Source of the DNA: Planctomycetota bacterium
GTDB lineage: Bacteria > Planctomycetota > SZUA-567 > H5-PLA8
NCBI GenBank assembly: GCA_045863855.1
Contig: BTVV01000158.1
Location: 1-13,109, forward strand
Direction of reading: 5' to 3'
Length of the DNA stretch: 13,109 nucleotides
Position numbers and translations under genes: made by a program. The notes under the pieces were generated by a model. The model worked only from the letters and a program-made list of their open reading frames with translations, was not told the origin of the DNA and did not search any database. Positions 1 to 13,109 of the stretch are shown here, piece by piece (within the stretch, counting starts at the first letter, position 1; every line of letters begins with the position of its first letter).

Positions 1-909
1 GGCATCGACGTGCGTGTAGAGTTCCGTCGTCGCGATGTTGGCGTGTCCGAGCAGTTCCTGAACGGCGCGCAGATTGGCGCCGCCTTCCAGCAGGTGCGTC
101 GCGAAGCTGTGCCGCATCGTGTGCGGGCTGACTTTCCCCGTCAGGCCGATACGCTTGGCGTATTTGCGCAGCAGCGACCAGACCGCTTGGCGGTCCAGCG
201 GCCGGCCGCCCTTGCTCAAAAACAGCCGCCCGCCGTCCCGCGTGCCGCGTTGTTTCGGCCGGACCGAAACCGTGTAGCGCCGCAGCGCCGCCAGCGCGCT
301 GTGCCCCACCGGCACGACGCGCGTCTTGCTCCCCTTCCCCGTCACGCGCACCACGCCTTGAGTAGCGTCCAGGTCCTCTTCGCACAGCCCGCACAGTTCG
401 CTGACCCGCAGGCCCGAAGCGTACAGCAGTTCCAGGATCGCACGGTCGCGGCACGGAAGCCGCCAACGCTTTGCGCTACTGCTCGTTTCCTCATGCGGCG
501 CCCGGACCAGCGCGTCGGCGTGATCGGCGCTAAGCACATGGGGCAACCGGCGCCACGTGCGCGGCGCATCGACGGTGGCCGACGGATCGGCGGAAAGCAA
601 TCCTTCGTGGACCAGGAAACGCATGAACACGCGCACCGCCGCTAAAGCACGAGCCACGGAAGACTCCCGGTGGCCGCGCTGCGATCGCTGCAAGGACATG
701 AAGGCGCCGACGTGCGAAGCGTCGATCTCGGAGGCGCATCCGATCCCTCGATCGTCGAGGTACCGCGCGAATTGTTCCAGATCCCGGCCGTAGGACGTGA
801 CCGTATGCGCCGAAAGTCCGCGCTCGACGGACAGATGCTCCAGAAACGCCGCGCGTTCGGCGGCAAGGCTGGCCGCGGCGGCGCGTTCGGACGGGCGAGT
901 GTCGGGCAT
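1..909 (-). CDS. xerD: Tyrosine recombinase, XerC/XerD family (XerD-like); 3' end truncated by window edge
   Basis: Manual translation of the minus strand from ATG at 909 stays open to base 1: MPDTRPSERAAAASLAAERAAFLEHLSVERGLSAHTVTSYGRDL...RDRAILELLYASGLRVSEL...VTGKGSKTRVVP...SPHTMRHSFATHLLEGGANLRAVQELLGHANIATTELYTHVDA. All catalytic residues (R, K, HxxR, H, Y) are present. GGGGAAG lies upstream of the ATG. Choosing XerD over XerC is less certain than the family call. Confidence 0.9.
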   Translation of the reverse strand, partial: MPDTRPSERAAAASLAAERAAFLEHLSVERGLSAHTVTSYGRDLEQFARYLDDRGIGCASEIDASHVGAFMSLQRSQRGHRESSVARALAAVRVFMRFLVHEGLLSADPSATVDAPRTWRRLPHVLSADHADALVRAPHEETSSSAKRWRLPCRDRAILELLYASGLRVSELCGLCEEDLDATQGVVRVTGKGSKTRVVPVGHSALAALRRYTVSVRPKQRGTRDGGRLFLSKGGRPLDRQAVWSLLRKYAKRIGLTGKVSPHTMRHSFATHLLEGGANLRAVQELLGHANIATTELYTHVDA

Positions 910-979
910 GGCGGGACTTCCCCGGATCGTTTCCTTCGTATCGTCCAATCGGCGGCCCCAACTGCACTCGAATGCCCAG

Positions 980-1008
980 TGGACGGGTGGCCCCGCGCGC
1001 ACTATAAA
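980..1008 (+). promoter_or_regulatory. Candidate sigma70-type promoter for the NtrC-family gene
   Basis: TGGACG (980-985), a 17-nt spacer, then TATAAA (1003-1008). It is a rare AT-rich patch in the divergent intergenic region, about 35 nt before ATG 1043. Confidence 0.45.
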
Positions 1009-1042
1009 AAGGTGGCAGGAATGCCGCCGCTATCGATAGGAA

Positions 1043-2656
1043 ATGGCTGACTCCATGAGCGATAATGCAGCCGAACCGGCCAAGGGTCCGACGCGACGGA
1101 TCCTGGCTATCGAAGACGATGCCAGCTACGGACTGCTGTTGCGCTATCAGCTTCAGCGCGAGGGCTACGAGCCCGCCGTGGTCACCAGCGGCGAGGAAGG
1201 CCTGCGCCGGCTCCAGGAACTCGAACCTTCCGTCGTCCTGCTCGACGTGATGCTCCCCGGTAAAGACGGGCGCCAGATCCTCGACGAGATCCACCGCATT
1301 CATCCCGAACTGCCGGTCGTCATGATCACCGCCGCCGGCTCCGTCGAGATGGCCGTCGAATGCATGAAGCGCGGCGCGTACGACTTCCTCACCAAGCCCT
1401 TCGAATTCGAACGGCTCTACGCGATTCTGCGCAACGCCATCGAGTACCACGAACTCAAGAAGCAGTTGAAGCAGCTGGAAGGCGCGCTGATCCAGCGCCA
1501 CGACTTCGAGCAGATCGTCGGGGTCTCCGAGCGCATGCGCCGCGTCGTCGACCAGGCCAAGCGCGCCGCGGCTTCCGATTCCGACGTGCTCATCCTGGGC
1601 GAATCGGGAACCGGCAAGGAAGTCCTCGCCCGGGCGGTGCATTACAACTCGGTACGCCGCAAAGGCCCCTTCGTCGCGATCAACTGCGGCGCGATCCCCG
1701 AAGGCCTCCTCGAAAGCGAACTCTTCGGGCACGAGAAAGGCTCGTTCACCGGCGCCGTCGCGCGCCGCACCGGCTGCTTCGAACAGGCCGAAGGCGGCAC
1801 CCTCTTCCTCGACGAGATCGGCGAGATGCGCCCCGACATGCAGGTGCGCCTCCTCCGCGCCCTCGAACAGCGCGAAGTCCGCCGCGTCGGCAGCGACAAA
1901 ACCATCAAGGTCAACGTCCGTGTCCTCAGCGCCACCAACCAGAACCTGACTCGCCGCATCAAGGATGCCAAGTTCCGCACCGACCTCTATTACCGCCTCG
2001 CCATCCTGATCCTCGATATCCCGCCGCTGCGCGAACGCCCCGAGGATATCGCGCCGCTCGCCCAGCACTTCCTCGCCCTCGCGCACCGCGAAGGCCACAC
2101 CCGCGCCACCGAATTCGCTCCCGACGCCCTCGAAGTTCTGAAGCGCTACGAATGGCCCGGCAACGCCCGCGAGCTGCGCAACGCCATCGAACGCGCCGTC
2201 GTCTTCGAAGACAGCGGCATGATCCAGGTCGGCAGCCTGCCGCCCGAACTCGTCCGCCGCGTCGCCCTCGCCGCCTCCGGAGCCGCCGCGCCCGAACCCC
2301 GCGCCGCCGAAGGCGGGATGTACGCCAGCGCCGCCGCCGGAGCGCCCCCGCGCCCGCTCACGCCCTCGCGCATGTCCACCCCTTCCATCCTCGCCGCCGT
2401 CTCCGCCGCCGCCGCTACCGGCACGCCAGCCGCCGCGCCCAAAGCCGCCCCCGCCGAAGCCCGCGACGACGGCGAAATCATGACCATGGAAGACGAAGAA
2501 AAGAAGATCATCCTCCGCGCCCTCGCCCTCACCGACGGCAACATCTCCGAATCCGCCCGCCGGCTAGGACTCCACCGCTCCACCTTGCACCGCAAGATGG
2601 CCCGCTACGGACTCGCCACCGAGGAAGATCTCGAAGCCGCCGAGAACGAAAGCTGA
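1043..2656 (+). CDS. Sigma54-dependent response regulator (NtrC/AtoC family; REC, AAA+, Fis-type HTH)
   Basis: REC motifs ILAIEDD, VLLDVMLPG, MITA, FLTKPF; Walker A GESGTGKE; ESELFGHEKGSFTGA; Walker B LFLDEIGE; FRTDLYYRL; WPGNARELRN; C-terminal GNISESARRLGLHRSTLHRKM. The start could be 1043 or 1055. Confidence 0.97.
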   Translation: MADSMSDNAAEPAKGPTRRILAIEDDASYGLLLRYQLQREGYEPAVVTSGEEGLRRLQELEPSVVLLDVMLPGKDGRQILDEIHRIHPELPVVMITAAGSVEMAVECMKRGAYDFLTKPFEFERLYAILRNAIEYHELKKQLKQLEGALIQRHDFEQIVGVSERMRRVVDQAKRAAASDSDVLILGESGTGKEVLARAVHYNSVRRKGPFVAINCGAIPEGLLESELFGHEKGSFTGAVARRTGCFEQAEGGTLFLDEIGEMRPDMQVRLLRALEQREVRRVGSDKTIKVNVRVLSATNQNLTRRIKDAKFRTDLYYRLAILILDIPPLRERPEDIAPLAQHFLALAHREGHTRATEFAPDALEVLKRYEWPGNARELRNAIERAVVFEDSGMIQVGSLPPELVRRVALAASGAAAPEPRAAEGGMYASAAAGAPPRPLTPSRMSTPSILAAVSAAAATGTPAAAPKAAPAEARDDGEIMTMEDEEKKIILRALALTDGNISESARRLGLHRSTLHRKMARYGLATEEDLEAAENES

Positions 2657-2784
2657 CCCGCACTCACGCGCGCTCCGGCACTCGAATCGGATGAGGCATG
2701 GCGCGCGCCCCCGCGCCGTGTTACGCTCCTAGTCGAGCGGCAAGTTCCACGACTCCGCCGCGCCCGAACAGAACTCGAGTCTCC

Positions 2785-4128
2785 ATGCACGACCCGGACG
2801 CCGAAGAAACTCCCGATTCCGCACCCCAGCCACCGGACGAAGCGGATGCCTCCTCCGCACCCGTCCCCGCGCTGCGCTCCGTCCAGGCCGAACCCGTTCA
2901 AGTCAAGGGCGGCGCCACCGGCGGCGGCGAAGACGAGATGGTCGTCGTGCTCCAGGATTCCGAACACCTCGCACCCCAGCCGGCCGTACTCAGCCCCGCC
3001 GCTTACGCGCTTGTCCAACTCTTCGACGGACGCCGCAGCGCCACCGAGATCGCCGAACTCTTCGAACAGATGTACGGGCAGGAAGTCCCCGTCGAACAAG
3101 TCCACGCGCTCAAGCGCGAACTCGACCAAGCCCTCTTTCTCAACAGCCCGCACTTCGAGAAGACCATCAAGGCCCAGCTCGTCGGCTACCTCAAGGCCAA
3201 GGTCCGCCCCGAAGCCCACGCCGGGCAGGCCTATCCCGAAGAGCCCCCCGAACTGCGCAAAACCGTCGAAGGCTTCTTCACGCTCCCCGGCGCGCCCGGC
3301 GTCCTCCCGCCCGCGCAGCCCGCCGCGAGCCACAGCCTCCGCGCGCTCATGCTGCCGCACATCGATCTGCGCGTCGGCGGAGCCGCCTATGCGCACGGCT
3401 ACAAGGAACTCCTCGAGAAAAGCCAGGCCGATCTCTTCGTCATCCTCGGCGTCGCGCATCAGGCCCTCGCCGAAGGAACTTTCTACGTCTCGCGCAAGCA
3501 TTTCTGCACGCCCTTCGGCGAAGTGAAGACCGAACGCGGCCTCGCCGGACGCCTCCAGAAAAAAGCCGGCCTCGAAGAAGCCATGGCCGAATTCGCCCAC
3601 AAGTCCGAGCACTCCATCGAATTCCAGACCACCCTGCTCCAGACGCTCCTGCACGAACGCGCCGGACGCGACTTCGAGATCGTCCCCATCCTCTGCGGCT
3701 CCGTCGAACCCTTCGTCGAAGCCGAAAAGAATCCCTGCGGCGACGACCGCTTCAAACGCTTCGTCGAAACGCTGGGCGAGGAACTCGCGCACTGCAAGCG
3801 CCGCTGGTGCGTCATCGCCAGCGTCGATCTCAGCCACGTCGGCCCCAAGTTCGGCCACTCCACCTCCATGGACGAAAAGCTGCTCAAGCCCGTCGCGCGG
3901 GCCGACCGCAAGATGCTCGGCTACCTCGAACGCCTCGACGCCTCCGGCTTCTTCCAGGAAATCCTGCGCACCCAGAACTCGCGCAACGTCGACGCCGTCA
4001 TGGCCATGCTCGCCCTGCTTACCCTCGGCGAAGGCCAGCTCAAGCAGGGCAAGCTCCTCCATTACGCCCAAAACTTCGAAGCCGCCACCAAGTCCGCCGT
4101 CACCTACGCCAGCATGTCCTTCGAGTAA
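2785..4128 (+). CDS. Memo1-like protein (AmmeMemoRadiSam system protein B family) with N-terminal extension
   Basis: Memo motifs PHID, ILGVAH, TPFG, HKSEHSIEFQ, IVPILCG, IASVDLSHVG and terminal SAVTYASMSF. The ORF opens at 2698, but ATG 2785 is preferred because a TG-n-TACGCT extended -10-like element lies at 2719-2727. Confidence 0.88.
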   Translation: MHDPDAEETPDSAPQPPDEADASSAPVPALRSVQAEPVQVKGGATGGGEDEMVVVLQDSEHLAPQPAVLSPAAYALVQLFDGRRSATEIAELFEQMYGQEVPVEQVHALKRELDQALFLNSPHFEKTIKAQLVGYLKAKVRPEAHAGQAYPEEPPELRKTVEGFFTLPGAPGVLPPAQPAASHSLRALMLPHIDLRVGGAAYAHGYKELLEKSQADLFVILGVAHQALAEGTFYVSRKHFCTPFGEVKTERGLAGRLQKKAGLEEAMAEFAHKSEHSIEFQTTLLQTLLHERAGRDFEIVPILCGSVEPFVEAEKNPCGDDRFKRFVETLGEELAHCKRRWCVIASVDLSHVGPKFGHSTSMDEKLLKPVARADRKMLGYLERLDASGFFQEILRTQNSRNVDAVMAMLALLTLGEGQLKQGKLLHYAQNFEAATKSAVTYASMSFE

Positions 4129-4136
4129 CCCCACGC

Positions 4137-4811
4137 ATGCCCGATTCCGCCGCCGAGATCGCCAACAAGCGCCGCCTCTTCCGCCGCCGGCTGGCCCAAA
4201 GCGTCCGCGCGCTTTCCGAACGCTCCGCCCCGCTGCGCGCCTGGATCGAAACGTGCGGCCCCTGCACCCTCGAAATCCGCTGGGAACAAAGCCCCTACGA
4301 ATCCCTCGTCCGCGCCATCGCGCACCAACAGCTCCACGGCCGCGCCGCGCAGACGATCCTCGGACGCCTCCAGGCCGGCTTTCGCGGCGACGGCTTTCCC
4401 GAACCCAAGCAGCTCGCCCGAGTCAAGCTCGATAAGCTCCGCCGCATGGGCTTCTCCGCCGCCAAAGCCGCCGCGATTCAAGGCATCGCCGCCGCCACGA
4501 TCCAAGGCCAAGTCCCAGACCGCGCCGAAGCCGAACGCCTTTCCGACGCCGAACTGATCCAACGCCTCGTCGCGCTCAAAGGCGTCGGCGTCTGGACCGT
4601 CGAAATGCTCCTCATCTTTACCCTTGGCCGCCTCGACGTGATGCCCGCCGACGATTTTGGCGTCAAAACCGGCCTGAAATTACTCCTCGAGCTGCCCGAT
4701 CTGCCCAAGAAGCCCGCCTTCGCCGAACACACCGCCGCCTGGAGCCCCCACCGCTCCGTCGCCGCCTGGTATCTTTGGCGCCGCGCCGACGCCGCCAAAT
4801 CCCCAGCCTGA
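4137..4811 (+). CDS. DNA-3-methyladenine glycosylase II (AlkA/Mag-like, HhH-GPD superfamily)
   Basis: PYESLVRAIAHQQLHG, helix-hairpin-helix LKGVGVWTVEM, catalytic-Asp region DVMPADDFGV, WSPHRSVAAWYLW. ATG 4137 is 8 nt after the Memo stop; the upstream part of ORF 3807..4811 is overlap shadow. Confidence 0.93.
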   Translation: MPDSAAEIANKRRLFRRRLAQSVRALSERSAPLRAWIETCGPCTLEIRWEQSPYESLVRAIAHQQLHGRAAQTILGRLQAGFRGDGFPEPKQLARVKLDKLRRMGFSAAKAAAIQGIAAATIQGQVPDRAEAERLSDAELIQRLVALKGVGVWTVEMLLIFTLGRLDVMPADDFGVKTGLKLLLELPDLPKKPAFAEHTAAWSPHRSVAAWYLWRRADAAKSPA

Positions 4812-4830
4812 ACGCCCGTATCGCGGGCGT
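4812..4830 (+). terminator. GC-rich hairpin immediately after the glycosylase stop (possible terminator or 3' stabiliser)
   Basis: ACGCCCG-TATCG-CGGGCGT forms a perfect 7-bp stem. There is no U-tract, so intrinsic termination is uncertain. Confidence 0.4.
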
Positions 4831-4886
4831 ACCGCCCGCTCTGCCATACGTTCTGTTCGCGGCCTGCCAAAGAGAAGCCAGACGGT

Positions 4887-4939
4887 GTGCCGTGCATTAA
4901 TTCCCCCTTACCAAGGGAGAGTTAGAGGCGGTGCCGTGC
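4887..4939. repeat. Short palindromic REP-like unit flanked by 9-bp direct repeats
   Basis: GTGCCGTGC at 4887-4895 and 4931-4939 flanks TCCCCCTT-ACC-AAGGGAGA (4902-4920; 8-bp arms, 1 mismatch). Confidence 0.4.
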
Positions 4940-4983
4940 GGTAGGGGTTAACCAAGTGCTGCGAGTTCATTGACGTGGGCCAG

Positions 4984-5026
4984 TATGCGGGCAGCCATGC
5001 AAAGGCATCCACCAGCCACCCGCATA
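4984..5026. repeat. Inverted repeat downstream of the secreted-protein gene (possible 3' hairpin)
   Basis: TATGCGGG (4984-4991) pairs with CCCGCATA (5019-5026), with an inner ATGC-AAAG-GCAT stem (4997-5008). It lies 20 nt past the minus-strand stop at 5047. Confidence 0.45.
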
Positions 5027-5046
5027 AGCAACCGTAAGGAACCTGC

Positions 5047-5775
5047 TTAGAGCTTTATTCGCTCCGGATCGATCTTCTGATTCCACTTCATCTCCGAATA
5101 GGTCTCGGTAAAGGTGGTCGAGCCTGCCGGCGCCTCTAGAATCGTTACGCGCTTTAGCGGCAAAGCCTTTACGGGATCGAGCCAGAACGTGCTATTAATC
5201 TTGATCTCGCCTTGGGTCGCTTGGGTTTCGACGATCTGAGCTTCCCGGTTATCGACCGTCTCTTTTTCACCCAGTTTGTAGGAAATAATGGGCGCAATCG
5301 TATTCATGCTGAGGGGCGGCAAATCTTTCTTGGGAGGCGGATTCTTGGGCGGAATCATGGCATTGACCGACGTAAATATGCCCAATCGAAGCCACGATTT
5401 GGTGAAATTCTCCTTAAAGTGCGAAGGCGCATACGTTCTCTGTTCGCTCTTCTCCTGAGCGGCTCCCATGACAACCGACACCAGGTATTCGGAACCGTTC
5501 GACCGCTGGTCCATACTGATTGATTTGCGCTGCATCTCGCCCGAATAAGTGATCTTACCCTTATTTCCGGTCTCTAACACCACTTCGCCGGTCAAATCCA
5601 CAGCCTTAATTCCGTTCTGAACGGCGCTGACCTGATACTTGAATTCCAGACTGGTGGTGCGGATCAGAAAGTCCTCCATTTTTCCAATCAACCGCCTGGC
5701 CTCGTTGCTATCCTGAGCGCCAAGGACACTTCCCCACAACATCGCCAACACGAGGCCCGATCGTTTCAAGCTCAT
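5047..5775 (-). CDS. Secreted hypothetical protein, possibly LolA/LolB-like beta fold
   Basis: Long open frame with a Sec-type signal (MSLKRSGLVLAMLWGSVLGA-QD). A beta-rich body and the tail YKLGEKETVDNREAQIVE...FWLDPVKALPLKRV...ETYSEMKWNQKIDPE resemble LolA-like proteins (inference). GGAG upstream favours ATG 5775 over 5790. Confidence 0.75.
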   Translation of the reverse strand: MSLKRSGLVLAMLWGSVLGAQDSNEARRLIGKMEDFLIRTTSLEFKYQVSAVQNGIKAVDLTGEVVLETGNKGKITYSGEMQRKSISMDQRSNGSEYLVSVVMGAAQEKSEQRTYAPSHFKENFTKSWLRLGIFTSVNAMIPPKNPPPKKDLPPLSMNTIAPIISYKLGEKETVDNREAQIVETQATQGEIKINSTFWLDPVKALPLKRVTILEAPAGSTTFTETYSEMKWNQKIDPERIKL

Positions 5776-6074
5776 AAGAATTATCTCCATAAGTAGTGAA
5801 CCGACCCGCGAATATACCTCAACAACAGGCCGGTTGACCGCCTAATCCGCCACTGTTCGGATGCGCACCAGAAACCCTCCGCCGCGCCCCCCTCATTCCG
5901 CCCCGGAACGGCATCGGAAAGTAGAGCGCAACCTGCCACCTCGCGCGCCTGCGCCGTTAACTGGAAACCGGAATCGGCCCGCGCCACCAGCCGCTTTCAA
6001 ACATGTGCGATCGGGCCGCCCGGTCAGCCGCTCCAAGAGGCGCGGCGATTCTAGTCGCCCGTAAGGATCGAGAT

Positions 6075-6887
6075 TCAGCACGCTTCCCAGGCTTCAAGTC
6101 GCGCGAGGATACGCGCCGGGCTCGTCAGGCCGCGGATCGCCTCGGCAAAGTTCCCTCGCGCCAATCGCGCCACCTGCACCAAGGCATTCAGATGAGGCCG
6201 CCCCGTCTGACCGCTCAGCAGGAACACCGCCATCCGTATGGGTTGCCCGTCAGGGGTCGGAAAGGGCAGGGGCCATCCCAGAGAAAGGAGCACCGCCGCA
6301 GGTGCTGCGCCGCGTACGACCGCATGCGGCGCGTACACCCCGAAGCCCAGCATCGAAGGAGCTTCGGCCTCGCGTGCAAGCACTTGCTGGACGAGTTGCC
6401 CAGGCGACGGGGAGGGCGTCCAAGACAGCCGAGAGACGGCCACTTCAACGAGGTCGTCCAGGCGCTGACATTCCAGTCCAGCCACCACTCGCTCCGCGCT
6501 CAATAACTGCCGCAGGCTCGCACGGTCGCCGGTTTTGGGGCGTCCGGTTGGAAACTCGCGGTCGAGAAACGCCCGCACACGCGCGAGGTCAGGAGCGCGC
6601 AGATCGCGCTTGGCGATCTCCAGAAACAGGGCGCCCGCCGCCGGTTCCTGCTTCACGTAGCTCGATACCGCCGGGCCGGTCTGCTCGGCCAGTTCCAGGA
6701 GTAATGGCGGCGGTACATCCAACTCTCGTGCGATCGCCAGGAGCCGATCCGGCGTCGGCACCGCGTCGTGGCCATGCTCCACGCGGCTCAAATACGCGCC
6801 GGATACGCCGATCCGCTGCGCCAGTTCGCGCAGCCCTATTCCCGCGCCCGCGCGCAAGAGCCGCAGCGTTGCTCCAAAGTGAGCCAT
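6075..6887 (-). CDS. XRE-family helix-turn-helix protein fused to a PTS EIIA (Ntr/fructose-mannitol type) domain
   Basis: N-terminal FGATLRLLR...GLRELAQRIGVSGAYLSRVEHG (XRE HTH). C-terminal REAEAPSMLGFGVYAPHA (EIIA phospho-His motif, H188), FPTPDGQPIR and HLNALVQVARL. Starts 4 nt after the antiporter stop. Confidence 0.88.
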   Translation of the reverse strand: MAHFGATLRLLRAGAGIGLRELAQRIGVSGAYLSRVEHGHDAVPTPDRLLAIARELDVPPPLLLELAEQTGPAVSSYVKQEPAAGALFLEIAKRDLRAPDLARVRAFLDREFPTGRPKTGDRASLRQLLSAERVVAGLECQRLDDLVEVAVSRLSWTPSPSPGQLVQQVLAREAEAPSMLGFGVYAPHAVVRGAAPAAVLLSLGWPLPFPTPDGQPIRMAVFLLSGQTGRPHLNALVQVARLARGNFAEAIRGLTSPARILARLEAWEAC

Positions 6888-6891
6888 TGCG

Positions 6892-9027
6892 CTAGCTGCG
6901 CTCCGATGTCGGGACGGTGTCAGCCGGAGGCCGCTCGGCGCGCGCTTGCGAGCGGTCCCGCACGATCAGCAGCGGAATAGGGCATTCCCGGATCAACCGC
7001 TCCGGTTGTAAACCAAACCGGCGCTCCTGAAGCCCCCAGTCGGCGCCTAGCCCCACCACCACCAGATCGATACCTTTGCGGCAGCGCTCCAGCACGGCCT
7101 GAGCCGGTTGGCTGTGGCGCACCACTTCCATGGCCACTTCTCCGTGCGCTTCCCCGAAGACGGTCCGCACCATCTCGCGCGCGCCCTGCCGCTCGGGCCG
7201 GACCACGTGGAGCACCACTATGCTCGCGCCCTGGTTACGCATCAGCCGGCGCGCCAGCCCCAGTGCCGCGCGGTCATGCTGCGAGCCCTGAAACGGCACC
7301 AGCACGGTCTTGACCGAGCCCAGCCCGCGGTCCACCAGAACCGCCACGTCCGCCGGAGCGGCCTGCATCACCTCGTGGACCACCCCGCCCAAATACGTCT
7401 GACTGAACAGCGGCTTATGCAGGCCCAGCAGGACCAGGTTCGCCGCGCGGGCGCCCGCCACGCGGCAGATATCTTGCGCCGGCTCGGGGGATACGAACGA
7501 CATCGGGCGGACTTCCACACCCAGGCTTCGCCCGAAGGTCACCATCGAATCCAGCACCGCGCTCGATCCCGACCCCGCTTCTTCTCCAATCAACTCGGAT
7601 TCGCGCTGCTCCGGCGGCTTGAGGTGCAACGCGAAGATGCGGTCCTCTCCGGGACCGGCCAGATAGTTCGCCAGGGTCAACAGGCTGGGCCCCGAAGAGG
7701 CGTGCGAAGCGCATACGAGCACCCGGTAATCGCCGGCCGCCAACGGCGGCGGCTTTTCGGTCGCTTCGATCAGATCCCGGGCCATCGCGTCGTCGGGGTA
7801 TACCCACTTCAAGATCGGCGTCGTGATAAAGGTGGTCACCAGCGCCATCAAGACCATCATCGTGAAGACCGTCGGAGAAATAACGCCCAGGTCCAGCCCC
7901 AGGTTCAATACGATCAGTTCCATCAGCCCGCGCGTATTCATCAGGATGCCCAGCGCGCTGGCCTCGCGCCACGATAACCCGGTCAGCCGCGCCGGGATCG
8001 CGCTGCCCCCGAATTTACCCAGGCACGCGACGAAGATCACCACCGCGCAGACCACCCAGTCGCCCGCGCTGTTCAACAGCCCCAGTTCCGTGCGCAGTCC
8101 GCTGAACGCGAAGAAAAGCGGGAGAAAGACGATCACCACCAAGTCCTCCAGCTTCTCCGCAAGCGCGTGCGCGAAGCCGCCTTCCTTCGGGAAGATCGCG
8201 CCAAACAGAAAGGCCCCGAAGAGCGCGTGAATCCCGATCAGTTCCGTGGCCCACGCGGAAAGAAACACCAGCACCAGCACCGCCGCGACCACGTTCTGGG
8301 ACATCGCCGCGGCCGTGCCCGTGCGTTGAGCCAGCCGGTGCAGGAGCGGCCGCACGCCCCACCACATCGCCGCGATGTACGCCAGTGCCCAGGCGGTCGT
8401 CCATGCCGCTCCCGCCATTCCCGACGACCGCGCCACCGCCACCACGAAGGCCAGCACACACCAGGCCGTAACGTCGTCCACCGCCGCGCACGTGATCGTT
8501 ACCGCGCCCACCCGCGTGCGTAGCAGCCTGCGCTCCGTCAAGATCCGCGCCAGCACGGGGAACGCCGTGATACTCATCGCCGCGCCCAGAAACAGCGAGA
8601 ACGCCGTGAACGGCACCGATGCGTCGGAATACAGGGGGTACAGGTATATCGCCAGGAGCACGCCGAGTACGAACGGCACGATGATACTCGTGTGCGAGAT
8701 CAGCACCGAAGTGTGCCCGCGGCCCTTCAGCATCTGCGGGTCCAGTTCCAGACCCACCAGGAACATAAAGAGGATCAGGCCTACCTGGCTCACGACCTGC
8801 AACACCACCAGCGACTCCGGCGCGAAAAGCACCTGCGACGCGTCCGGGAAGAGCAGGCCCACCAGGGAAGGCCCCAGCAGAATCCCCGCCGTGATCTCGG
8901 CGATCACCAAAGGTTGCCCGACCCACTTGGATACCAACCCCAAGAGCCGCGAAGCCACGATCACAGAGACGGCCTGCGCCATGAAGCGGGTTAGCGGGTC
9001 GTGCACGAGATGCTTGAGCACGCTCAT
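6892..9027 (-). CDS. Cation:proton antiporter (CPA2, CHX/Kha-like) with C-terminal USP-like domains
   Basis: About 400 hydrophobic residues with QPLVIAEITAGILLGPS, FMFLVGLELD, SITAFPVLARIL, AAVDDVTAW, LPLFFAFSGLRT, GKFGG and MNTRGLMELIVLNLG. The soluble tail has USP-like motifs (LVLLGLH...LGGVVHEVMQAAPADVAVLV; VLVPFQGSQHDRAAL; DLVVVG). Confidence 0.95.
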   Translation of the reverse strand: MSVLKHLVHDPLTRFMAQAVSVIVASRLLGLVSKWVGQPLVIAEITAGILLGPSLVGLLFPDASQVLFAPESLVVLQVVSQVGLILFMFLVGLELDPQMLKGRGHTSVLISHTSIIVPFVLGVLLAIYLYPLYSDASVPFTAFSLFLGAAMSITAFPVLARILTERRLLRTRVGAVTITCAAVDDVTAWCVLAFVVAVARSSGMAGAAWTTAWALAYIAAMWWGVRPLLHRLAQRTGTAAAMSQNVVAAVLVLVFLSAWATELIGIHALFGAFLFGAIFPKEGGFAHALAEKLEDLVVIVFLPLFFAFSGLRTELGLLNSAGDWVVCAVVIFVACLGKFGGSAIPARLTGLSWREASALGILMNTRGLMELIVLNLGLDLGVISPTVFTMMVLMALVTTFITTPILKWVYPDDAMARDLIEATEKPPPLAAGDYRVLVCASHASSGPSLLTLANYLAGPGEDRIFALHLKPPEQRESELIGEEAGSGSSAVLDSMVTFGRSLGVEVRPMSFVSPEPAQDICRVAGARAANLVLLGLHKPLFSQTYLGGVVHEVMQAAPADVAVLVDRGLGSVKTVLVPFQGSQHDRAALGLARRLMRNQGASIVVLHVVRPERQGAREMVRTVFGEAHGEVAMEVVRHSQPAQAVLERCRKGIDLVVVGLGADWGLQERRFGLQPERLIRECPIPLLIVRDRSQARAERPPADTVPTSERS

Positions 9028-9052: not shown

Positions 9053-9526
9053 AATGCCGGCAAGTCGGAAGCCGTATTTTTATTACCGAACGTAGCCTTG
9101 GCCGGCCTGCAGACCCGGAATGCCTTGGCACGTGAACTTGCGCAGCTCATCCGGAACTCGCTGCATACGGCAGGCGTCGTCCAGAAATTACCCAGCAAGG
9201 ACGGGAAATGCTCTGCGTTCCCTCCAACTTTGGTCATGCATGGCGCAACATACACCTTCACGGTCGGTCGGCAGTTGGCACGGTCACGCCTCATCTTTCC
9301 GCGTACCCTTGTTTGAACTGGTGCCCCTGCGCTGCGGCCGTTCGCAGCCAGTGCCGGACGGCGTCTCGCCCACGCTTTGCAACTCCACGCGTGTCCCTAG
9401 TTGAAACACGGTGATCGCACGGGTTGCGAACGTCCGCATCCCGTGGCACCAAATCCAGAAGGAGCAACGCGCTCACGATCGGTTGGTTAAGTTCCCCGTG
9501 CCACAAGCCCTTCTATTAAAATTCAG

Positions 9527-9934
9527 TCACCGTCTAGCTGCGGCTCTTATTAAGGCTATTACATTCGCATCGTCTTTAAGTTGGCACTCCCAAAGCACCA
9601 ATACGCGATAGCCAAGTCGTTGAAGCGCCGCCTTGGACCGGCGATCTCGAATCTTGTTGGCATTCTTCTTGGACTCCCAAAACGATCGGCGAGTGGTCGG
9701 CATGCTCCGGCCTCGACGACAAGAATGAGCGTGCCAGAAACAACCATGAACGAAGATCGCCAGTTTGCGGCGGGGCAGAACTAAATCAGGGGTGCCGGGC
9801 AATCTCGCGTCGTGCTTGGTGAATCGGAAGCGCATCGAGCGAAGGAGCGCCATAACGGCCTTCTCGGGCCGGGTACCTTTCGACCGAATTTTACTCATGA
9901 CACTTGAGCGCTGTTCAGGGGAAAGGCGATCCAC
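9527..9934 (-). CDS. vsr: Very short patch repair endonuclease
   Basis: Full Vsr signature: DRLSPEQRSSVMSKIRSKGTRPE, LPGTPDLV, AIFVHGCFWHAH, FWESK, NKIRD, VLVLWECQL. GTG start 3 nt after the upstream stop. Confidence 0.97.
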   Translation of the reverse strand: MDRLSPEQRSSVMSKIRSKGTRPEKAVMALLRSMRFRFTKHDARLPGTPDLVLPRRKLAIFVHGCFWHAHSCRRGRSMPTTRRSFWESKKNANKIRDRRSKAALQRLGYRVLVLWECQLKDDANVIALIRAAARR

Positions 9935-9937
9935 TCG

Positions 9938-11065
9938 CTACGTTCCAGCTGCGGTATTGCCCGCTTGCGGCTTTGTGGTTGCGGCCTTTACTACCTCCTC
10001 CGCCCAAGGCTTCAAATCTCGTTCGGGCATGCCTGGCCGCGCCGCTGTTGTAAGGTAGGCCCAGGCCACTTGTTCACGAAACGGGCTGTCGATCGAGGCG
10101 ACCCTGACAAAGTCGTGGTTGGAGGACTTGAAATCACCAATCGAAGCGAGTGGTATTATTTCAAGGTCTTTGAGGTTGGCCGCAGAGGTCGGGAGTATGT
10201 CACCGAAAGCGGGCAGAGGAAGCCAGCCATTCCAACTTCCCTGTGACAGTACCAAGCTGGCCAACTGCTTTTTCAAATCCTTGTCGTCCGATGGTTCGAC
10301 TGCCTTTTTGAACTTGTCCAGCATAGCCGCAGACGGAAAGCACTTAGCAACAAGCGCAGCCGGAACCTTTCCACCCCGCGCCAAATCGCAAGATGGGCTG
10401 AGTATGAGCCGGTAGCTCTCGGGGGAAGTCTTTGGGCTCCCTCGCTTGTAGATGATGTCTCCTGTCAAACAATCTCGGCCGATTGCGGGTACAAGGTACA
10501 CTTCCCAGCATGTCATCTTGCGATTGCCGATGAGCGTTGGATCGTCCATCGTCGCGGCGATCCGCCGCCGACCCGCGTGTAAAAGGTGCGATGCGTCATC
10601 CATCGGCATGTGGCCGTCACCGGCCGTGTCTCGCAGCACTTTGTGGATCACGGCGTCCACTTCCGTCCGGAGCGATCGCACCGATGCGGCGAATGGTGCA
10701 AAGCGCTGAAGGCTCGCCACGACCTTCGGCAGTGAGCCCTCTCCTTTGGCGATTCGCTCTACGAACCTCTGTCCCTGTCGAATTGCGGGGTCGATGTCCG
10801 CGTCAGTCCCCGAATAGATAACAATGGGGCAGAAAGACCCATCCCAGATCGATTTCCAGGTTTTCGCGCCTGGCAGGTTGGGTGACTGCAGTCCTTCCAT
10901 CAAGTCCAGAATCACTGCATCGGGCCTCTCGACAGCTACCCGCTCTACCCCCTTCTCGAAGTCGGCCTCGCAGTTGCAGACTATCCCACTGAAGGCTTCC
11001 GCTATTGCCTCGGTAAGCAACTCGTGATACTCGGGATCGTCGTCAATGATGAGAACGGTCTTCAT
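9938..11065 (-). CDS. Receiver (REC) domain protein with an uncharacterised C-terminal domain
   Basis: REC: VLIIDDD, PDAVILD (D54 phosphoacceptor position), PIVIYSG, IAKG. The C-terminal ~250 aa have no recognisable HTH, GGDEF or AAA motif but contain TGDII, LILSPSCDL and RVASIDSPFRE...RPGMP. A GGAG RBS lies in the 18-nt gap upstream. Confidence 0.85.
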   Translation of the reverse strand: MKTVLIIDDDPEYHELLTEAIAEAFSGIVCNCEADFEKGVERVAVERPDAVILDLMEGLQSPNLPGAKTWKSIWDGSFCPIVIYSGTDADIDPAIRQGQRFVERIAKGEGSLPKVVASLQRFAPFAASVRSLRTEVDAVIHKVLRDTAGDGHMPMDDASHLLHAGRRRIAATMDDPTLIGNRKMTCWEVYLVPAIGRDCLTGDIIYKRGSPKTSPESYRLILSPSCDLARGGKVPAALVAKCFPSAAMLDKFKKAVEPSDDKDLKKQLASLVLSQGSWNGWLPLPAFGDILPTSAANLKDLEIIPLASIGDFKSSNHDFVRVASIDSPFREQVAWAYLTTAARPGMPERDLKPWAEEVVKAATTKPQAGNTAAGT

Positions 11066-11083
11066 GGGCCAGGCTCCGCCGGA

Positions 11084-13109
11084 CTACTTCAAAGGGAGAT
11101 CGAACAGGAACGTTGCGCCGCCGAGTTTGCCCTTACGGTCAAGAGCCAGTTTCCCGTCATACTCGGCCACGATTTCGGATGCCACCGTGAGACCCATGCC
11201 GATGCCGCCGGGCTTCTGGGTGACTCCGGGCCAGAAAACCTTGTCGGCCATGTCCTCGGCCACACCCGGACCAGTATCGTGTACTTCCACAATCGCACGC
11301 TTGCCGTGAGCGGCTTTACGGATGCGGACTTCAACCTTGCGCACGGTGCCGCCCTTGTGGGCCAACCAGTAGACCGCGTTGGACAAGAGGTTGAGTAGCA
11401 CGGCATCAAGTTCGCCCGGATCTATGGCAACTTCCGTCGTCGAGCCAGTTGGAATAGTGATGACGATTTTTCCCGCGGTACATTCCCGTTCGAGCATCTC
11501 CACGCAGCGTTTCGTACTCTCTTCAATGATCGCGCTCCGAACCCGCCGCTTGAATTGCCGATTAGCGAGGGGCGCAAAGGTATTCGCCAGTTTGTCGAGC
11601 GCGGTCACTGCCGTTCGGCCCTTCTCGATCTTGCCGACCGCGTCCTTATCGTCGCTGGCAAGACCGATTCGCTTACTTAGCCAGTCGAACACGCTGCCCA
11701 AAATCGTCGTCCGTTGCCGAACTTCGTGAATCAGCATGAGGGCAATCGTGCCGACGGTGGCTAATCGGCTGTAATACACGAATCGCGTCTCGATCTCTTC
11801 ACGTGCCTTGTCCAGGTTGCCGCTAAACTCTTCGATGAGCGGCAGTGCTTCGGAAGCCGAGCCGCCTGCGTTGGCGACTTCGGCAACTCCGGAGACCAAC
11901 CCCTTAGCGTCCAGTTGCTTAAACAAGTCAGAAACGCGGGGCTCCTTCGGCGATTCGTGGCGATCCTTCTGTCGCTCGTTCTCCATCACTGAGACGATGA
12001 CGCGCAGCGTCTCCTCGAATGCCAAGACCTCGGGCGTGGCGGCCAAGCGTTCGCGATCACTAGTATCTTCAATTTTGGGATTCTTCGCAGCCGTAATCGC
12101 GACATAGCCCACTATCTGCGTTGTGCTCATCCGTTTGCCGACCTTGCCGATGCGGCGAACATCAAGATGCAACCAATCTCGCGTGCCTTCGGACTTTGGT
12201 AACACGAGGACACCATCCCGATAGACGGAGATGCCTTTATAAGTCTTGATGTCCTCTTTGATCTTGGCCTTTTTCAACTCGAAACGCTCGGCGATTTCGT
12301 GAAGATCGTCGGAAGCGTTGTCCCATGCACGAATATCGAATGTGAAAGCCCCAAACCCCGGATTCTTCATTGCCATAAGCGTTGCGTCTTCAGAATCATC
12401 GCGTATCTGCGACCAGTTGACGGTCCCCTTTGACGAGCGATGACCGTCCCCCTGCATGGCCGCGAACTCGTACTCATACTTTATCGTACCCTTATTGTTG
12501 ACCGTGCCCCGCACAAGGTACTTGGGGTGCTTCAGAAACTCGGGAGGTTCAACGTTGATCGTATTGTCGAACAATCCCTCCGGTGTACTGAGTCGAATGG
12601 AGAACTCATCAGGAACATCGAACGGAGGGAGTAGGCGAGCAAGATTATCGCGAAGATCATCCCATGCTTGGTCGTTCCAAACGGTCCTGAGTGGCCAAAT
12701 CCGCAAGCGCGTCCCTGAAGTCTTGAACGGCGGTTCGGCAGTCCGTTGAATCGTGGCGACGCATTGTTCAAGACTCCCGGATTTCGACAATGCCTCCCAA
12801 TCCACTTTGAGCGTCCAGCATTCCTCGCCATCCGTCTGCGTGACCATTTCCAACTTGCCGCCCAATCTTGCGGACGACAAACGCCCGAGTCCTTTTTCTC
12901 CCGATGTCCGGCGGTCGCGCTTACCCTTGTGCTTTGCGACCGAGTGTTTCTTGCGATACGGTGTTGCAACCGTACACCAAGCATCTTCAATCGTCGCACG
13001 ACTCATGCCCGAGCCGTTGTCCTCAATCTCCAGCATCCACTCCGTCTTGGATCGTTCGAAGCGGACATCCACCATGGTCGCATAAGCGTCGTAGGCGTTC
13101 TTCACCAAC
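11084..13109 (-). CDS. GHKL (MORC/MutL-like) ATPase fused to a histidine kinase (HisKA + HATPase); 5' end truncated
   Basis: First GHKL fold: LVKNAYDA, IEDNGSGMS, GEKGLGRLS, SGTRLRI, then an S5-like region (GISVYRDGVLV, QIVGYVAI, DTSDRE). Kinase: H-box LIHEVRQ (His codon 11726-11728), N-box NLLSNA, DTGPGV, VFWPGVTQK, GIGMGL. The true start lies beyond base 13109. Confidence 0.92.
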   Translation of the reverse strand, partial: LVKNAYDAYATMVDVRFERSKTEWMLEIEDNGSGMSRATIEDAWCTVATPYRKKHSVAKHKGKRDRRTSGEKGLGRLSSARLGGKLEMVTQTDGEECWTLKVDWEALSKSGSLEQCVATIQRTAEPPFKTSGTRLRIWPLRTVWNDQAWDDLRDNLARLLPPFDVPDEFSIRLSTPEGLFDNTINVEPPEFLKHPKYLVRGTVNNKGTIKYEYEFAAMQGDGHRSSKGTVNWSQIRDDSEDATLMAMKNPGFGAFTFDIRAWDNASDDLHEIAERFELKKAKIKEDIKTYKGISVYRDGVLVLPKSEGTRDWLHLDVRRIGKVGKRMSTTQIVGYVAITAAKNPKIEDTSDRERLAATPEVLAFEETLRVIVSVMENERQKDRHESPKEPRVSDLFKQLDAKGLVSGVAEVANAGGSASEALPLIEEFSGNLDKAREEIETRFVYYSRLATVGTIALMLIHEVRQRTTILGSVFDWLSKRIGLASDDKDAVGKIEKGRTAVTALDKLANTFAPLANRQFKRRVRSAIIEESTKRCVEMLERECTAGKIVITIPTGSTTEVAIDPGELDAVLLNLLSNAVYWLAHKGGTVRKVEVRIRKAAHGKRAIVEVHDTGPGVAEDMADKVFWPGVTQKPGGIGMGLTVASEIVAEYDGKLALDRKGKLGGATFLFDLPLK

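Follow-up and report, generated by a model that had tools for sequence, protein, structure and literature searches.

A 13,109-nt contig of a Planctomycetota bacterium (GenBank assembly GCA_045863855.1, contig BTVV01000158.1) carries three genes of a cassette whose response regulator is predicted to end in a toxin-like domain. This stretch, called the window below, makes up all of contig C158 in genome G000. With its upstream part, the cassette encodes a C5-cytosine methyltransferase (Dcm), a fusion of a GHKL ATPase with a histidine kinase, a receiver protein, and a Vsr very-short-patch repair endonuclease. The gene content of related loci and structural models indicate that these four travel as a unit, without a conserved restriction nuclease or a recognizable antitoxin, and that the receiver output domain has the fold of MazF, PemK, CcdB, and ToxN. 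We favor the explanation that this is a horizontally acquired defense cassette that restricts by signaling, with a DNA-reading kinase gating a toxin-fold effector, and we give it a probability of roughly 0.47. The genes and domains are listed below, with positions in the window unless contig C154 is named.

C154 at 125-1201, minus strand: C5 methyltransferase gene (Dcm), 358 aa; PF00145 E 3.1e-57, TIGR00675
C154 at 2-124, minus strand: first 41 codons of the kinase gene, located by a genome search with the N-termini of close homologues
11084-13108 (11084..13109 with the partial codon end), minus strand: GHKL-ATPase/histidine kinase fusion, soluble, cut by the contig end; 674 aa visible, about 716 aa in full
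12764..13108, minus strand: N-terminal MutL/MORC-type GHKL ATPase (HATPase_c_3), Pfam E 3.5e-17
11090..11800, minus strand: histidine kinase core, H-box (His codon near 11728) plus HATPase_c, from Pfam and homologue alignment
9938-11065, minus strand: receiver-effector protein, 375 aa, with REC domain, helical linker, and predicted MazF/CcdB-fold domain
10691..11065, minus strand: REC domain with D8-D10, D54, S85, and K107, from fold match and conservation
10031..10477, minus strand: output domain, predicted MazF/PemK/CcdB/ToxN fold, about residues 197-345, with near-invariant D203, C226, D227, R343, and P347
9527-9934, minus strand: Vsr very-short-patch repair endonuclease, 135 aa; TIGR00632 E 4.2e-41 and PF03852, passing cut-offs

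The initial annotation had recognized a receiver-effector protein and left the effector unidentified. The receiver part stands, and the effector can now be given a probable fold. In the model of the whole protein (predicted local distance difference test, pLDDT, 91.2), a helical linker separates the REC domain from a second, beta-rich domain, and fold searches with this model returned REC domains only. The output domain was modeled alone from a 72-sequence alignment (pLDDT 94.4) and compared with 48,161 chains. The top 12 rows were all MazF, CcdB, Kid, PemK, or CptN (Z 10.0 to 6.7), the first row outside the MazF/CcdB group had a Z of 4.3, and no DNA-binding fold was found for the domain in this comparison. 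The best match was MazF-mt3 (Z 10.0, root-mean-square deviation (rmsd) 2.9, 103/105 residues aligned). CcdB matched with Z 9.1 and 95/95 residues aligned, and MazF and CcdB tie within one Z unit on a second fold comparison. Foldseek returned expectation (E) values of 6.6e-4 to MazF-mt3 and 7.0e-4 to a phage PemK-like protein, and the ESM Atlas's own model of the domain matched a PemK cluster with a template-modeling (TM) score of 0.55 over 105 residues. Z values of 7-8 are common for unrelated models in this type of comparison; the toxin-fold assignment draws on the gap below row 12, the single family above it, and the near-complete coverage of the targets. A homodimer prediction of the domain scored 0.26 against a mark of 0.42 and gave no answer either way.

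The phosphorelay parts of the two larger proteins are well conserved. The REC domain superimposed on the FrzS receiver with Z 15.4 and rmsd 2.4 over 112 aligned residues, and its Pfam match to Response_reg was weak (residues 4-89). D54 and K107 are present in 90/90 receiver homologues, all of which have Ser or Thr at position 85; together with the REC fold, this upholds the intact D8-D10, D54, S, and K site noted earlier. Within the visible kinase, Pfam placed HATPase_c_3 at residues 1-115 and HATPase_c at residues 563-673 (E 7e-22). The ATPase motifs N3, D29, G31, G33, G69, G72, and G74 and the kinase motifs H460, E461, N572, D610, G612, G634, G636, and G638 (P0121 numbering) are invariant in all 102 aligned homologues, so the initial annotation was right to see two GHKL folds and intact H, N, D, and G boxes. 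Its view that the protein lacks a transmembrane, PAS, or GAF sensor also held. No membrane helix was found (highest 19-residue hydropathy 1.27), and Pfam detected no PAS or GAF domain in the visible kinase. An extra N-terminal sensor domain hidden upstream was considered and ruled out, since only 42 kinase residues are missing from the window and leave no room for one.

The N-terminal ATPase is the putative input. Its residues 1-171 match NF050001 (BbrUII/HgiDII restriction enzymes) at E 1.3e-21, below the family cut-off. It departs from the strict MORC motif GhXhhpXXRhl of the S5 region, with V, I, or L at the Arg position in 102/102 kinases. Excerpts of Iyer et al. 2008 (PMC2292703) give the paraMORC marks as ExxxH (2), RE nuclease (3), TIR (4), and an HxH domain (5). 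ExxxH is missing from the middle region in 66/102 of our kinases, and their C-terminus is a kinase. The GHKL-S5 module may sense DNA. ParaMORCs have been suggested to detect unmethylated DNA (bioRxiv 10.64898/2026.09.30.754977, seen in part), and defense by VcSduA requires a GHKL domain according to the available sections of PMC12137116.

Linkage of the four genes was assessed in 83 loci collected via the receiver protein: 80 metagenome loci, the best of 302, plus 2 on viral contigs and 1 from genomes. All-against-all clustering returned four recurring families, the receiver in 83 loci, the kinase in 70, Dcm in 68, and Vsr in 52. Inspected by eye, the remaining large clusters came from antisense or shifted reading frames of the four genes. 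No fifth recurring protein family was found in this clustering, and this genome has no room for one. After dereplication at 90% identity, 71 loci remained, and the kinase was present in 60/60 of those with at least 400 nt upstream. Among the 17 loci with full context (at least 4.5 kb upstream and at least 2 kb downstream), the kinase and Dcm occurred in 17/17 and Vsr in 16/17, bearing out the expected linkage to methyltransferase and vsr genes. The kinase-receiver order is fixed, and Dcm and Vsr change place between loci. Dcm motifs PCQ and ENV are intact in 46/46 full-length copies. Across 34 loci, the pairwise identities of the proteins are correlated (0.77 for kinase and receiver, 0.50 for kinase and Dcm, 0.50 for receiver and Dcm), although shared descent could suffice to explain this.

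The initial annotation also suggested looking past position 13,109 for a C5 methyltransferase and a nuclease. The methyltransferase was found on C154, whereas the nuclease was not. Clustering and a flanking scan of the 71 loci (133 open reading frames (ORFs), up to two per side plus any within the core) detected no conserved restriction nuclease in the core, where Vsr is the one nuclease. A restriction or HNH nuclease lies directly beside the core in at least 5/71 loci (L001, L016, L045, L074, L083), with HNH in 4/71. No antitoxin gene was seen, as the gaps between the window genes are too small and no small gene recurs among ORFs of at least 70 aa; an RNA antitoxin was not found in an Rfam scan of the window and was sought no further. 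The neighbors of the full-context loci were tallied by hand, without a background control. Components of restriction-modification (R-M) or of abortive-infection or toxin-antitoxin type stood in 7/17, integrases, transposases, or phage genes in 8/17, and either defense or mobile genes in 13/17, in keeping with the predicted association with defense islands.

The predicted order of the cassette is Dcm, GHKL-ATPase/histidine kinase, receiver protein, and Vsr. The ORF coordinates reproduce the three co-oriented genes of the initial annotation, with gaps of 18 nt (kinase-receiver) and 3 nt (receiver-Vsr), and the third gene is indeed Vsr by TIGR00632 and PF03852. Close kinase homologues are about 715 aa long. 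The TTG opening the 674-aa ORF is an internal Leu codon, and the ORF is truncated by the contig end. On C154, the kinase start follows immediately on the Dcm stop codon, and codon 42 is divided between the ends of C154 and C158 with one base unaccounted for. Colinearity argues for joining the two contigs, and contigs from two public runs, one of them possibly the source sample, reach beyond the window end. An ArsR-AHSA1 gene and a Na/H antiporter gene flank the cassette, and its guanine-plus-cytosine (GC) content of 0.562 compares with 0.641 and 0.663 in the flanks. A profile of the output domain matched 1/40 related genomes (distantly), 0/2 congeners, and 3/400 genomes of the phylum with at most 8 candidates scored per genome. 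This low GC content and patchy distribution suggest that the cassette is mobile and was acquired horizontally. A scan for promoters and terminators upstream of dcm found none.

The output-domain family is broad, with profile matches in 1133 clusters at 50% identity (E up to 0.001) and 277 at 1e-30. A PF28550 label on one fragment could be a newer Pfam name for the domain. Distant receiver proteins on plasmids carry the domain (E 1e-25 to 1e-11), and the family extends to plasmids of Acaryochloris, Hymenobacter, Enterobacter, and Campylobacter. A conjugative Campylobacter plasmid (L092:4408-8861) has a convergent dcm alongside a related kinase and a receiver that carries this output domain (E 1.1e-14), and 41/73 plasmid records matching the kinase came from Campylobacter. 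On a Burkholderia plasmid (L088:3032-8201), a related kinase lies with an N6-type methylase, a short receiver lacking the output domain, and a metallo-beta-lactamase (MBL)-fold hydrolase, a partner set suggesting that outputs are exchangeable. A 407-aa ORF (L086:2120-3343) after the receiver gene of the relative G010 looks, by eye, like an HNH-type N-terminus fused to a Ser/Thr kinase. Two receiver-less proteins of about 300 aa have the output domain at their N-terminus (L125:910-1788 and L126:1147-2058, minus strand), with an hhalign probability of 92.9 for the domain in one of them. Each lies downstream of an unknown gene and possibly belongs to an undescribed toxin module. These receiver-less relatives had no matches in viral contigs, plasmids, or phages, and their upstream gene matched no family.

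Dcm makes 5-methylcytosine, and Vsr repairs the resulting T:G mismatches. In the mechanism we propose, Dcm would mark host DNA and Vsr would mend the mismatches that follow. The ATPase clamp would read the state of DNA, detecting either that incoming DNA has unmethylated target sites or that Dcm is inhibited, and this reading would switch His460 autophosphorylation and transfer to Asp54. Phosphorylation would then release or dimerize the toxin-fold domain, which would arrest the infected cell by cutting RNA, as MazF or ToxN does, or by binding a protein target, as CcdB does. The receiver would thereby take the place of an antitoxin. Every functional step here, from input and phosphotransfer to toxicity, RNase activity, and defense, is an inference.

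Several observations weigh against the favored explanation. The output domain is only 9-15% identical to MazF or CcdB, and a shared fold alone shows no function. Sequence methods detected no MazF link. Pfam gave 0 meaningful families for 72 output-domain members, PF02452 matched 0/72 of them and nothing in the own genome, a search of PDB sequences returned nothing under E 0.24, NCBIfam and PADLOC had no match to the domain, and hhalign against 17 PemK proteins was nonsignificant (E 0.58). According to the sections consulted, MazF activity requires an Arg and a Thr (PMC10893535), and the ToxN active site uses Lys/Arg and Thr (PMC8860590). The nonsignificant PemK alignment pairs R219 with the MazF Arg and position 243 with the Thr, but shifting the register by two residues looks, by eye, just as plausible and loses the Arg pairing. 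Homologues vary at the Thr-equivalent position (about 243), so the catalytic Thr of MazF appears not to be conserved. R219 is kept in 84/90 close homologues and 102/149 more widely, and it is replaced by an aromatic residue in 7/7 distant ones. The residues the domain does keep are C226 (149/149), D227, R343, and P347 (148/149 each), and D203 (144/149), and the Cys226-Asp227 pair is no MazF feature. A second Cys (242) is kept in 140/149 and lost in distant members. The fold-aligned range ends with CcdB residue 101 near residue 345, the ranges giving end points only, which may put the RxGxP motif at the gyrase-contacting part of CcdB. In addition, 4/17 full-context loci have neither defense nor mobile neighbors, and 66/133 neighbor ORFs have no Pfam family in loci of which many are short, so hidden nucleases are possible. 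Finally, in the available parts of a study of the related anti-phage system Ambrosia (AbrRABCD; van den Berg et al., bioRxiv 10.1101/2025.09.30.679545), methylation gave phage no protection and toxicity to the host was not observed. This result fits neither self-marking nor abortive infection, though the output and methylase of Ambrosia differ from those described here.

The apparently missing Thr and the uncertain Arg would fit a defused toxin fold that binds RNA, DNA, or protein and tunes Dcm and Vsr or a neighboring R-M system, as a controller rather than a killer. Other R-M components lie within two genes in 6/17 full-context loci (L028, L029, L035, L039, L044, L083), and control of R-M genes has been proposed for related systems in the parts seen of PMC8011034 and of the Ambrosia study. 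We nonetheless consider such a regulator somewhat unlikely, as the fold comparison gave the output domain no DNA-binding match, this cassette has no nuclease to control, and the neighboring R-M types vary by locus. The invariant residues could instead point to a new type of enzyme built on the MazF fold, with the Cys-Asp pair serving, for example, in metal binding or as a covalent catalyst. The conservation of C226, D227, and R343 and the occurrence of the domain in the receiver-less proteins speak for this idea, but the Cys may be structural, Cys 242 is lost in distant members, and neighboring genes give no clue to a substrate. We regard it as improbable.

Alternatively, the cassette may be an addiction module in which the kinase and receiver kill cells that lose methylation after loss of the cassette or its plasmid, making it selfish first and defensive as a by-product. 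The closest folds are those of plasmid addiction toxins, CcdB and Kid for example, the same output domain recurs in distant relatives carried by plasmids, and Dcm is retained in every full-context locus. Split kinase genes were found in 4 loci, and a split Dcm in 1, which has an intact near-twin. However, these numbers are low, the kinase gene has twice the length, and splits can arise from assembly errors. Ambrosia, with a related layout, shows phage defense in the excerpts available. Addiction as the primary role is thus unlikely in our estimation, although it is compatible with the signaling-based defense we favor. A cassette with no defense role at all, in which an orphan methylase and a repair nuclease are controlled by a nucleotide- or stress-sensing two-component pair, seems very improbable. 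In its favor, no PADLOC model matches the receiver protein, and Bellieny-Rabelo et al. (PMC8011034, seen in part) speculated that the ATPase senses nucleoside triphosphate (NTP) levels. Against this stand the patchy distribution, the low GC content, the defense or mobile neighbors in 13/17 loci, and the toxin-fold output.

Positions 1-9027 of the window hold ordinary neighbors. The contig start truncates an ORF that by eye resembles a tyrosine recombinase, and the others are a sigma-54 response regulator, a Memo-like protein, and a Na/H antiporter with Usp domains. One further feature lies at the downstream edge of the cassette.

9270..9510, strand not assigned: dispersed repeat of about 240 nt, probably a non-autonomous mobile element, outside the system

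By blastn, 13 more pieces of it are spread over 10 other contigs. On contig C13, its two halves flank a 220-aa ORF resembling, by eye, a REP-associated tyrosine transposase, an arrangement that makes a non-autonomous element probable. Rfam gave no match to this repeat or elsewhere in the window. The genome as a whole strongly avoids CAGCTG, at 0.12 of expectation, and GAGCTC, at 0.25; nothing ties either to this Dcm.

Cassettes that join a MORC-kinase and a receiver beside a C5 methylase lacked an identified output, and a toxin fold makes the question directly testable. If the favored explanation is correct, phosphorylation replaces an antitoxin as the control of a MazF-type toxin. DNA methylation would also be tied to abortive defense, with the cell poisoned on a signal rather than DNA being cut. 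The family is sizable and plasmid-borne in several genera. The class itself is already known, having been predicted in 2021 (HEF_HK/Response_reg_2), and a relative was reported as anti-phage in 2025 (Ambrosia), both as given in the sections consulted. The toxin-fold output behind a receiver, as modeled here, is the new and testable element. We found no paper that combines a MORC-kinase/receiver cassette with a toxin-fold output, in a search whose coverage left out most subscription journals, and only three papers there name the two Pfam families of the HEF_HK/Response_reg_2 class. A bolder proposal, which we hold only tentatively, is that the response regulator is an antitoxin-free MazF/CcdB-fold toxin, with a MutL-like clamp reading methylation and a His-to-Asp switch, giving restriction without a restriction nuclease, and that this domain may be the output of a wider MORC-kinase class including Response_reg_2.

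The closest known layout is that of the HEF_HK (PF19191)/Response_reg_2 (PF19192) elements. The initial annotation held that the architecture had been noted computationally. This is correct for Bellieny-Rabelo, Pretorius, and Moleleki 2021 (PMC8011034), whose available sections describe HATPase_c_3 + HEF_HK + HATPase_c kinases beside Response_reg_2 genes, but the portions seen of Iyer et al. 2008 contain neither "receiver" nor "two-component". In the 2021 elements, a C5 methylase is often upstream and Vsr is most often directly downstream, and no output domain is assigned to the Response_reg_2 receivers in those sections. Both sets share a soluble kinase with HATPase_c_3, H-box, and HATPase_c, an adjoining receiver gene, a linked C5 methylase, and Vsr. 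However, our kinase had no match to PF19191 at E 0.1 or in the genome search (control L093, E 1.6e-25), and our receiver had none to PF19192 (control L093, E 4.3e-18). The kinase H-box reads HEV, and the receiver is 375 aa with a near-canonical REC, compared with about 600 aa in Response_reg_2 as described there. Because the proteins miss both Pfam models, the cassette is a separate branch with the layout of the HEF_HK class and not a member by its defining profiles. On the Response_reg_2 side, L093 and L091 contain similar short motifs, and hhalign to the output domain gave nonsignificant E values of 0.029 and 0.066. An iterated search gave a best E of 0.011 for L091, with L093 outside the top rows.

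Ambrosia similarly combines a methylase, a HATPase/histidine kinase, and a receiver in one cluster. The initial annotation knew of no mechanistic characterization, but this relative has been tested, blocks phage, and requires the receiver Asp, according to the excerpts available. Ambrosia is described there with an XRE regulator, an N6-adenine methylase, a winged-helix receiver output, and an HNH nuclease, whereas our cassette has a C5 methylase, Vsr, and a predicted MazF-fold output, with no XRE or HNH gene. The paraMORC GHKL-S5, BbrUII/HgiDII, and VcSduA systems share an N-terminal GHKL ATPase next to Dcm and Vsr, and in the consulted part of Iyer et al. 2008 (PMC2292703) paraMORCs occur with Dcm and Vsr but no receiver. 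Our kinase has a histidine kinase where the paraMORC/GHKL fusions carry a nuclease or TIR, and the loci contain no conserved helicase. With the MazF/PemK/Kid, CcdB, and ToxN/CptN/AbiQ toxins, the output domain shares its predicted fold. Compared with these toxins, it is fused behind a receiver, is about 50 residues longer, has no antitoxin gene in sight and no PF02452 match, appears to lack the catalytic Thr, and has Cys-Asp and RxGxP motifs of its own.

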